Assembly (NCBI RefSeq): GCF_055900595.2
Contig: NZ_CM148325.1
Length of the DNA: 64,000 bases
Reading direction: 5' to 3' (one strand)
Below the pieces are notes generated by a model that worked only from the letters and a program-made list of their open reading frames with translations, did not search any database and was not told the origin of the DNA. The translations under genes and the position numbers were made by a program. Shown one piece after another: positions 18,835 to 22,146 of this stretch (positions are counted from its first letter, which is position 1; each line of letters starts with the position of its first letter).

Positions 18835-20094
18835 TTATGAGCGCTTCATCATTTCGAAGAAATCGTCATTGGTCTTGGTCATCGCCAGTTTATTAATGAG
18901 GAACTCCATGGCATCGATTTCGCCCATCGGGTGAATGATTTTGCGCAGGATCCACATTTTCTGCAGCTCTTCCTGAGTAGTGAGCAGCTCTTCTTTACGG
19001 GTACCGGAACGGTTGTAGTCGATTGCCGGGAAGACGCGTTTTTCAGCGATCTTACGAGAGAGGTGCAGTTCCATGTTGCCTGTACCTTTAAACTCTTCGT
19101 AGATAACTTCGTCCATCTTGGAACCGGTATCGATAAGCGCGGTAGCGATGATGGTCAGGCTGCCGCCCTCTTCCACATTACGCGCCGCACCGAAGAAGCG
19201 TTTCGGGCGATGCAGGGCGTTGGCATCCACACCACCGGTCAGCACTTTACCTGACGCCGGAACAACGGTGTTGTAAGCACGCGCCAAACGAGTGATGGAG
19301 TCGAGCAGAATGATAACGTCTTTCTTGTGCTCAACCAGGCGTTTCGCCTTCTCGATCACCATTTCCGCAACCTGAACGTGGCGAGATGCGGGTTCGTCAA
19401 AGGTGGAAGCAACAACTTCACCTTTTACCAGACGCTGCATCTCGGTGACTTCTTCCGGACGTTCGTCAATCAGCAGAACCATCAGCACACAATCCGGGTG
19501 GTTGTAAGCAATGCTCTGAGCAATGTTCTGCAGCAGCATGGTTTTACCGGCTTTCGGCGGTGCCACAATCAGACCACGCTGACCACGACCGATAGGTGAT
19601 GCCAGATCCAGTACGCGAGCGGTTAAATCTTCAGTAGAACCGTTACCACGTTCCATGCGCAGACGAGAGTTTGCGTGCAGCGGGGTTAAGTTCTCAAAGA
19701 GGATTTTGTTGCGGGCGTTTTCAGGTTTGTCGAAGTTAACTTCGTTAACTTTCAGCAGCGCAAAATAGCGTTCACCTTCTTTCGGCGGGCGAATCTTACC
19801 AGAGATGGTATCACCAGTGCGGAGGTTGAAACGGCGGATTTGGCTAGGAGAAACGTAGATGTCATCAGGACCGGCGAGGTAGGAGCTGTCTGCGGAACGG
19901 AGGAAACCAAATCCATCCTGCAATATCTCCAGTACGCCATCACCAAAGATATCTTCGCCACTCTTTGCGTGCTGCTTCAGGATGGCAAAAATAATGTCCT
20001 GCTTACGCATACGAGCCAGGTTTTCCAGCCCCATATTTTCGCCGAGAGTGATCAGCTCAGAAACCGGCGTATTCTTTAATTCGGTAAGATTCAT
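18835..20094 (-). CDS. rho: transcription termination factor Rho
   Basis: Translation matches Rho ([33 protein letters not shown]..., Walker [11 protein letters not shown]); the track ORF (443 aa) is extended 24 codons upstream of the true start. Confidence 0.97.
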
Positions 20095-20178
20095 AGTGGT
20101 GTGAGTTCTTAAACTTGGGGTAAATCTCGAACTTAATGTTGTGAATGGTATGGCAGGATCATCCATGCCTGTTTACGG

Positions 20179-20280
20179 TCATCGACTCATGTCTTTTCGC
20201 TGCCTGGTCACAGGAGAGTACGCAGAACTGAAACGACAAGACGGATTGAGTGACGAGCCAGAAATCTGTTCACTTCGCAT
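20179..20280 (-). CDS. rhoL: rho operon leader peptide
   Basis: 33-codon ORF translating to MRSEQISGSSLNPSCRFSSAYSPVTRQRKDMSR upstream of rho. Confidence 0.7.
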   Translation of the reverse strand: MRSEQISGSSLNPSCRFSSAYSPVTRQRKDMSR

Positions 20281-20420
20281 TTAAGATAAAACGGGAAGCG
20301 TTGGAAATTACAAGATTCAAACTTAATAAGGTATGTTTAATACGAAGTCAACACTAAGTTAGCATGACTCACGCCGGGCGTCCAGTTTTTAGCGACAGGG
20401 CACCCGAACATGAAATTCCC

Positions 20421-20750
20421 TTACGCCAGGTTAGCGTCGAGGAACTCTTTCAACTGACCTTTAGACAGTGCGCCCACTTTGGTTGCCGCCACTTCACCGT
20501 TTTTGAACAGCAGCAGAGTCGGGATACCACGGATGCCATATTTCGGCGCAGTGCCAGGGTTTTGATCGATGTTCAGTTTTGCAACGGTCAGTTTGCCCTG
20601 ATATTCGTCAGCGATTTCATCCAGAATCGGGGCGATCATTTTGCACGGACCGCACCACTCTGCCCAGAAATCAACGAGGATCGCCCCGTCCGCTTTGAGT
20701 ACATCCGTGTCAAAACTGTCGTCAGTCAGGTGAATAATTTTATCGCTCAT
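20421..20750 (-). CDS. trxA: thioredoxin 1
   Basis: 109-aa product [53 protein letters not shown]... with WCGPC active site; the track ORF is N-extended. Confidence 0.97.
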
Positions 20751-20880
20751 ATATAACTCCACAGGAATAAGCCTGGCGTGTTGGTTTCGTTGTTGGTGTA
20801 ACATTAACCAACTAAAGGTTGACTTTATTTCACCGGATACGCTTTCGTAAAGCAATAGTAAGCTGATATTCTACCACACT

Positions 20881-22146
20881 ATGAGCAAAACACATTTAAC
20901 AGAACAGAAGTTTTCCGACTTCGCCCTGCATCCGAAGGTTGTAGAAGCCCTTGAAAAAAAAGGGTTTCATAACTGTACGCCCATTCAGGCACTGGCCCTT
21001 CCGCTGACGCTGGCGGGTCGTGACGTAGCCGGGCAGGCGCAAACCGGTACCGGGAAAACGATGGCGTTTCTTACGTCAACGTTTCATTATCTTCTCTCTC
21101 ATCCCGCGATTGCCGATCGCAAGGTGAATCAGCCGCGTGCCTTAATTATGGCACCGACGCGTGAACTTGCCGTGCAGATCCACGCCGATGCGGAGCCACT
21201 GGCGCAAGCTACCGGCCTGAAGCTGGGTCTGGCTTACGGTGGTGATGGCTACGACAAACAGCTGAAAGTGCTGGAAAGCGGCGTTGACATACTGATTGGC
21301 ACCACGGGTCGTTTAATTGACTACGCCAAGCAGAACCACATTAACCTCGGTGCCATTCAGGTGGTAGTACTGGACGAAGCCGATCGCATGTACGATCTGG
21401 GCTTTATTAAAGATATCCGCTGGCTGTTCCGCCGTATGCCGCCTGCAAACCAGCGCCTCAACATGCTGTTCTCCGCCACGCTTTCGTACCGGGTACGCGA
21501 ACTGGCATTCGAGCAGATGAACAATGCCGAATATATTGAAGTGGAACCGGAACAGAAAACGGGCCACCGTATAAAAGAAGAGCTTTTCTACCCTTCTAAC
21601 GAAGAAAAAATGCGTTTGCTGCAAACGCTGATTGAAGAAGAATGGCCAGACCGAGCGATTATTTTCGCCAACACCAAACATCGTTGTGAAGAGATCTGGG
21701 GCCACCTGGCAGCAGATGGTCATCGTGTCGGTTTGTTGACAGGCGATGTCGCGCAGAAAAAACGTCTGCGTATCCTTGATGAATTTACCCGTGGCGATCT
21801 GGATATTCTGGTTGCCACCGACGTTGCCGCGCGTGGTTTGCATATTCCGGCAGTGACGCACGTCTTTAACTACGATTTACCCGATGACTGTGAAGATTAC
21901 GTTCACCGTATTGGTCGTACAGGTCGCGCAGGAGCAAGCGGTCACTCTATCAGCCTGGCCTGTGAAGAGTATGCATTGAATTTGCCTGCTATTGAGACCT
22001 ATATTGGTCACTCAATTCCGGTAAGCAAATACAATCCGGACGCATTGATGACCGATCTGCCAAAACCGCTGCGCCTCACACGCCCGCGTACAGGTAATGG
22101 TCCGCGTCGTACTGGCGCTCCGCGTAATCGTCGTCGTTCAGGTTAA
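20881..22146 (+). CDS. rhlB: ATP-dependent RNA helicase RhlB (DEAD-box, degradosome)
   Basis: 421-aa ORF with Q-motif, Walker A (AQTGTGKT), DEAD box (VLDEADRM), SAT and HRIGRTGR motifs and Arg-rich C-terminus. Confidence 0.97.

Follow-up and report, generated by a model that had tools for sequence, protein, structure and literature searches.

How the spacer between trxA and rho controls the rho gene in Escherichia coli, and whether the short reading frame rhoL within it works as a peptide gene or as a piece of RNA, is the question that this locus raises. In the analysed stretch of 64,000 nt (the window), the spacer occupies 326 nt at 20095..20420 on the minus strand, as do all features given below, and is bordered upstream by trxA (20750..20421) and downstream by rho (20094..18835). 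The rhoL frame is located between the two genes on the same strand as rho and runs from ATG to TGA at 20280..20179; it contains 33 codons and a stop, is annotated as "rho operon leader peptide" (RefSeq annotation and NCBIfam NF007433), and its translation is MRSEQISGSSLNPSCRFSSAYSPVTRQRKDMSR. A sequence-only reading had recognised here a rho leader with a 33-codon rhoL frame at 20179..20280, and the frame was confirmed on the minus strand with the same peptide; RefSeq annotation, the MG1655 gene map and the NF007433 match agree on the identity of the region.

The 326-nt interval was matched in 5425 of 5426 complete E. coli genomes, with an identity of 99-100% in 5378 of these, and "rhoL: rho operon leader peptide RhoL" is annotated by RefSeq beneath the match. 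The RhoL peptide matched NF007433 over its full length (1-33) with 95.2 bits (cutoff 85, E 1.5e-27). No family for rhoL was found in Pfam and Rfam, and an Rfam scan of 19500..21000 (E<=1) revealed no rho-leader family, only a TrxA thermometer and a chance fluoride-riboswitch match. In MG1655 coordinates, rhoL is located at 3966231..3966332 and rho at 3966417..3967676, and window positions were converted as MG1655 = 3966417 + 20094 - window.

This is the very same locus as the E. coli rho autogenous attenuator with rhoL (b3782; Barik 1985, Matsumoto 1986, EcoCyc, RefSeq), with 99.7-100% identity to the K-12 sequence and to those of other E. coli; it shares the ORF, the gene order trxA-rhoL-rho and the attenuation by Rho that acts in the leader and the early coding region. 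Over the 326-nt spacer, K-12 MG1655 differs at one position only, 20397, where it has C instead of T; the position falls in the trxA hairpin, and the change, GGGTGCCCTGTC versus GGGTGCCCCGTC, left the predicted stability of that hairpin unaltered (-20.5 versus -20.4 kcal/mol). The locus and its Rho autoregulation have been described for about 40 years already, and what is added here is modest: arguments that rhoL is not conserved as a coding gene, and a location for the likely rut and the termination zone that falls partly beyond the flagged coordinates.

Rho-dependent autoregulation through the leader, which the sequence-only reading had called known, is established (Barik 1985, Matsumoto 1986; ChIP, PMC12121999; H-SELEX, PMC9499579; Term-seq, PMC7815308). 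Attenuation of rho by Rho in its own leader goes back to Barik 1985 and Matsumoto 1986, as they are cited in passages of PMC6582626. In ChIP data, RNA polymerase (RNAP) occupancy drops from the leader to the rho ORF (PMC5499598, PMC12121999); in a rho R66S mutant the occupancy within rho is increased 12-fold, and with tetracycline the occupancy in rho is not significantly altered (both PMC12121999). In H-SELEX, the rho 5′ UTR gave a Rut peak of about 160 nt (PMC9499579). By Term-seq, a bicyclomycin-sensitive 3′ end with a Rho score of 7.07 ("Yes") was mapped at rho +50, MG1655 3966467 or window 20044, and a bicyclomycin read-through of 7.8-fold (p 1e-215) was given at MG1655 3966504, window 20007 and about rho +87 (PMC7815308 supplement). 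We therefore list 20007..20044, in the early rho codons, as a documented Rho-dependent termination zone (Term-seq, PMC7815308; ChIP, PMC5499598 and PMC12121999). The published Rho-dependent 3′ ends (20044 and about 20007) fall just outside the interval 20095..20420 that had been flagged.

Another published RNA 3′ end lies inside rhoL, at MG1655 3966322 (window 20189, minus strand; PMC7815308 supplement), in rhoL codon 31 and 2 nt past the upper part of the hairpin HP2 described below. It appears in two of three growth-condition lists and is absent from the LB OD 0.4 list, the one with Rho scores, so that it carries no Rho score (PMC7815308). Silencing of rho by knock-down de-represses a rho-leader reporter, a rhoL fragment in multicopy imitates Rho inhibition, and rhoL deletion as well as IS2 or transposon insertions give Rho- or RpoS-related phenotypes. 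Ribo-RET detected initiating-ribosome reads at rhoL with RPM of at least 5 and a rise of at least 3-fold in low Mg2+ (PMC11429745), and from this signal some rhoL translation probably takes place in E. coli.

The transcript that reaches these sites most likely begins in the region where trxA ends. The trxA 3′ hairpin was found at 20414..20368 (minus strand; MFE -20.5 kcal/mol); its 3′ arm CTGGACGCCCG is invariant, and its 5′ arm varies with complementarity retained. Published trxA 3′ ends lie at the foot of this hairpin, at MG1655 3966142 and 3966145, corresponding to window 20369 and 20366 (Term-seq, PMC7815308 supplement). The hairpin is followed by GUCAUGCUAAC without a U run, so it does not have the form of an intrinsic terminator for trxA, and a consensus scan of 19900..20900 found neither a canonical sigma-70 promoter nor an intrinsic terminator.

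A relaxed scan combined with conservation gave a candidate main rho promoter, P(A), at 20356..20384 on the minus strand. It is composed of a -35 element TGGACG (20384..20379), a 17-nt spacer and an extended -10 element TGcTAACTT (TG at 20364..20363, hexamer at 20361..20356), and its predicted start is the G at 20349. Of 12 Enterobacterales leaders that were scanned for the pattern T(G/A)GACG-17-TGnTAA(C/G)TT, 11 carried it, among them those of Yersinia, of Acerihabitans and of one Photorhabdus out of two, and by its sequence P(A) would belong to the extended -10 class of sigma-70 promoters, conserved in relatives. If P(A) is used, the rho leader (5′ UTR) would extend over about 255 nt at 20095..20349. 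Matsumoto in 1986 reportedly gave the rho leader a length of 255 nt, in agreement with this start. A second promoter-like site, P(B), is located at 20323..20351 (minus strand), with TTGACT (20351..20346), a 17-nt spacer, TATTAA (20328..20323) and a predicted start near 20316; it is the best consensus match in E. coli (9/12) and is kept only in Escherichia, Citrobacter and one Enterobacter.

The earlier proposal that the trxA terminator and the rho promoter share this short region thus stood in part: the hairpin at 20414..20368 contains the -35 element at 20384..20379, but without a U tract it is not a canonical intrinsic terminator. Among 80 gammaproteobacterial loci, trxA was located upstream of rho in 71, and the trxA-rho spacer measured 143-598 nt in 70 of these 71 and 89 nt in a reduced-genome symbiont (locus L014). 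Just upstream of the rho leader region, at 20721..20820 on the minus strand, the trxA 5′ UTR carries a known cis-regulatory element, the Rfam TrxA_thermometer (RF02773; 78.8 bits, gathering score 58, E 2e-13).

With the ends of the leader placed, the status of rhoL can be considered. Dinucleotide shuffling produced an ATG-started ORF of at least 33 codons in 22% of cases for the 255-nt leader and in 37% for the 326-nt spacer, and because so many shuffles carry a frame of that length, the rhoL ORF alone is not beyond chance. It has no Shine-Dalgarno sequence (anti-SD pairing +1.2 kcal/mol), and in the predicted fold its AUG (20280..20278) is wholly paired in the 3′ arm of the hairpin HP1. The accessible ribosome-binding site and start codon of a translated leader-peptide attenuator were thus missing; we also found no intrinsic terminator/antiterminator hairpins and no sensing codons, and the RhoL peptide contains no regulatory-codon run.

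For comparison, we assembled 38 distinct Enterobacteriaceae leaders, eight from genomes and 30 unique ones from 42 metagenome contigs. In this set, which is biased in that it was partly retrieved by a pattern fixing 26 nt and excluding the Escherichia variant and which holds no named Salmonella sequence, an ATG ORF across the conserved core was found in the E. coli frame in six leaders, in another frame in nine, and in neither in 26; three Klebsiella-like leaders carry an ORF in both frames and are counted in both of the first two numbers. The E. coli ATG is used only by E. coli and E. albertii among the six E. coli-frame leaders. The remaining four are one Citrobacter-like contig with a different upstream ATG and the three Klebsiella-like leaders, in which indels lead to a peptide unrelated to RhoL. 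ATG, frame and stop together were kept only in Escherichia among the 38 leaders; indels of 1, 2 and 5 nt occurred within the rhoL region, and the TGA was often TGG.

Column entropy at codon positions 1, 2 and 3 was 0.36, 0.33 and 0.375 in rhoL versus 0.12, 0.15 and 0.55 in rho (nt 61-300 of the same genomes as reference), and the excess of substitutions at the third codon position that was present in rho was absent in rhoL. With the frame retained in six of 38 leaders, frame-shifting indels and flat entropy, purifying selection on the rhoL ORF was not detected in the relatives. Comparative sequence offers no support for rhoL as a conserved peptide gene; judged by these alignments, rhoL looks like conserved structured RNA and not like a conserved protein-coding gene. 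A lineage-specific RhoL peptide could be functional in Escherichia, and the Ribo-RET signal is the chief observation that speaks against reading rhoL as RNA alone.

The structure in question consists of two hairpins. HP1, CGCUUCCCG-loop-UGCGAAGUG, is located at 20271..20300 (minus strand) by folding and by comparison of the 38 leaders; its MFE is -10 kcal/mol with a z of -3.5, and it occupies 87% of the ensemble. Its pairing was retained in 92.7% of the cells in the 38 leaders versus 27-67% when slid, with compensatory changes in two pairs and a loop length that differs by 0-30 nt. HP2, seen in the centroid structure of the leader fold, is a long imperfect hairpin over rhoL codons 8-34 (20177..20259, minus strand) and holds the 15-nt core GTCGTTTCAGTTCTG (20237..20223), which is unchanged in all eight genome-derived Enterobacteriaceae leaders, its invariance in the 30 metagenome rows being imposed by the search pattern. 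The pairing of HP2, which was taken from the E. coli fold, was retained in 91.3% of the cells in the 38 leaders versus 26-48% when slid, with compensatory changes in just three pairs; this comparative support is suggestive and not proof. Global RNAalifold of the 38 leaders gave a weak consensus of -16.7 kcal/mol with 0 compensatory pairs. The covariation support is modest for HP1 and weaker for HP2, and the nucleotide conservation fits an arrangement in which the rhoL region forms two hairpins and an unstructured tract, rich in C and poor in G, comes next.

That tract, C-rich, G-poor and weakly structured, extends from -85 to about +30 of the rho ATG (20065..20179, minus strand) and is the best rut (Rho-loading) candidate in the leader. 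The sequence-only reading had called the leader C-rich and G-poor in places, as for a rut-like site, which holds for 20175..20075 and weakly for 20320..20225 but not for rhoL itself (C=25, G=25). The strong C>G tract at 20175..20075 contains 27-28% C and 10% G, with C/G up to 2.75; it begins downstream of rhoL and extends into rho. In the weaker tract at 20320..20225, C/G is about 1.5. When every 78-nt segment of the 64 kb is ranked by its excess of C over G, the largest value here stands no higher than about the 94th percentile. RNAalifold left the -85..+30 tract mostly unpaired, so a stretch of about 80 nt with the composition and weak structure of a rut is present upstream of the stop points.

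Conservation to Yersinia and Photorhabdus is restricted to -85..+30. The rho start at 20094 lies inside this tract and has no Shine-Dalgarno sequence. Third-position entropy of rho in Enterobacterales was 0.05 in codons 1-10, 0.30 in codons 11-20 and 0.5-0.9 later, and these near-frozen synonymous sites in codons 1-20 (20094..20035) indicate that the nucleotide constraint of the leader does not end at the start codon but reaches into rho. Over the 100 nt that precede rho, C exceeded G in 76 of 80 Gammaproteobacteria (loci L002-L081), whatever the G+C content of the genome, with means of 27.5 for C versus 15.0 for G, a pattern suggesting that many Gammaproteobacteria autoregulate Rho through a proximal rut. 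Judged by eye, an obvious Shine-Dalgarno sequence before rho is usually missing in those Gammaproteobacteria.

Two other possible coding features were considered in this part of the leader and rejected, and both fall within the deeply conserved block. An ATG at 20166, in frame with rho and with no stop between, would give a 24-codon N-terminal extension of Rho (443 aa); it is missing in Yersinia and Photorhabdus, and the frame is broken by 2-nt indels. A 9-codon ORF at 20162..20133, despite an AGG 5 nt upstream, showed entropies of 0.16/0.27/0.18 without a codon-position signature; a 1-nt deletion lies inside it in seven of 38 leaders, and its stop is lost in two.

Two further observations concern the rho coding sequence. 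One contig from a human gut metagenome (L104) shows a frameshift and a stop at rho codons ~26-40, with 25% identity past codon 25; with its low coverage (3x), misassembly is the probable cause, and the contig was left out of the codon statistics. The fluoride-riboswitch match in the rho coding sequence (19849..19953, minus strand) scored 14.8 bits versus a gathering score of 34 (E 0.54) and is almost certainly due to chance.

Taken together, we consider it quite probable that in this E. coli rho leader the rut is the conserved -85..+30 tract and not rhoL, and that the rhoL ORF is an Escherichia-specific by-product whose translation stands outside the conserved mechanism. Transcription would start just past trxA, most likely at the extended -10 promoter whose -35 element lies inside the trxA hairpin, which would make the leader about 255 nt long. 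HP1 and HP2 would form in its first two thirds, where the whole rhoL ORF lies, and the last 85 nt or so, together with the first 30 nt or so of rho, would form an unstructured, C-rich and G-poor tract without a Shine-Dalgarno sequence. When Rho is abundant, it would load on this naked tract and halt RNA polymerase after 50-90 nt of rho; with little Rho present, the polymerase would read through. Negative feedback by premature termination early in rho has been shown in the literature. For the placement of rut at -85..+30, we infer it from composition, deep conservation, suppressed synonymous change, the C>G bias in 76 of 80 loci and the predicted lack of structure. The rhoL ORF would be a by-product of a structured RNA region poor in stop codons. 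A further step, which we put forward tentatively and hold to be less probable than not, is that the "leader peptide" owes its label to an accident of annotation in a single genus, and that selection across Enterobacteriaceae preserves the two-hairpin RNA domain, in which HP1 buries the AUG and HP2 carries the 15-nt core. This domain would gate the access of Rho to an unstructured, C-rich rut whose composition is common to Gammaproteobacteria, and it would answer RNA-structure inputs such as sRNAs (SraL) or Mg2+ and not a peptide.

Other explanations of the same region have to be weighed against this one. The rhoL-region RNA (HP1, HP2 and the core) might mainly be a dock or switch for trans-acting RNAs such as SraL, hiding or exposing rut, and this would be compatible with the rut at -85..+30. 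Reviews describe the pairing of Salmonella SraL with the rho 5′ UTR, by which premature termination is prevented; the 15-nt core is invariant in the eight genome-derived Enterobacteriaceae leaders; and among the better E. coli SraL duplexes in the prediction, one spans the core (20242..20221, -17.9 kcal/mol). However, 89 of 200 shuffles did as well as the whole-length duplex, and windowed duplexes gave eight near-equivalent sites, and we regard such a dock as the main role of this RNA as rather unlikely. That rhoL is truly translated, with ribosomes opening HP2, setting the naked RNA seen by Rho and tuning attenuation by translation efficiency as in mgtL/mgtA and tnaC, is less likely still. 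It would account for the leader-peptide annotation in EcoCyc and RefSeq with the NCBIfam equivalog match, for the Ribo-RET start signal induced in low Mg2+ (PMC11429745), for the rhoL stop codon marking precisely where the C-rich tract begins and for the phenotypes of rhoL insertions or deletion. These phenotypes, however, would follow just as well from a disrupted leader RNA or from polarity on rho; the frame has no Shine-Dalgarno sequence, its AUG is paired in a stable conserved hairpin, the ORF is missing or frame-shifted outside Escherichia without a coding substitution pattern, and tetracycline had no significant effect on RNAP occupancy in rho (PMC12121999).

Least probable of the three, in our judgement, is that the -85..+30 block is conserved for SD-independent initiation of rho translation or as an internal promoter, and not for Rho loading. 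The missing Shine-Dalgarno sequence of rho, the conserved start-codon context and first 10 codons, and a conserved weak promoter-like sequence TAAACA-17-TGcCATACC would be in line with this, but the -10 candidate lacks the key final T, and the C>G bias in 76 of 80 Gammaproteobacteria with differing sequences fits a compositional requirement of rut. The H-SELEX Rut peak (PMC9499579) and the Rho-dependent ends just downstream (PMC7815308) also speak for Rho loading on this block.

The reading with the rut at -85..+30 and rhoL as a by-product can be set beside known leaders. The Salmonella sRNA SraL prevents premature termination by pairing with the rho leader there (Silva 2019, as related in reviews). 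The Salmonella leader is orthologous to the present one, and the block of premature Rho termination by the sRNA there probably works through occlusion of rut, as far as the reviews report it (Silva 2019); the non-Escherichia Enterobacteriaceae leaders compared here mostly have no rhoL ATG. The mgtL-mgtA, corL-corA and tnaC-tnaA leaders and the topAI uORF resemble rhoL in that a long leader carries a short ORF, with a zone of Rho-dependent termination farther downstream. Those uORFs are conserved and have specific sensing codons as well as ribosome-binding sites, and termination there responds to translation stress, whereas rhoL has no SD, a buried AUG, no conservation and no tetracycline effect. 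The trpL, hisL, pheL and leuL genes stand in the same "leader peptide" annotation list as rhoL; unlike them, rhoL has no regulatory-codon runs, no terminator/antiterminator pair and no U-tract terminator, and termination is factor-dependent.

Since Rho terminates a large share of bacterial transcription, the circuit that sets the level of Rho matters. On the reading preferred here, mutational studies of rho autoregulation and of "ΔrhoL" phenotypes would be redirected from the peptide to the RNA element.
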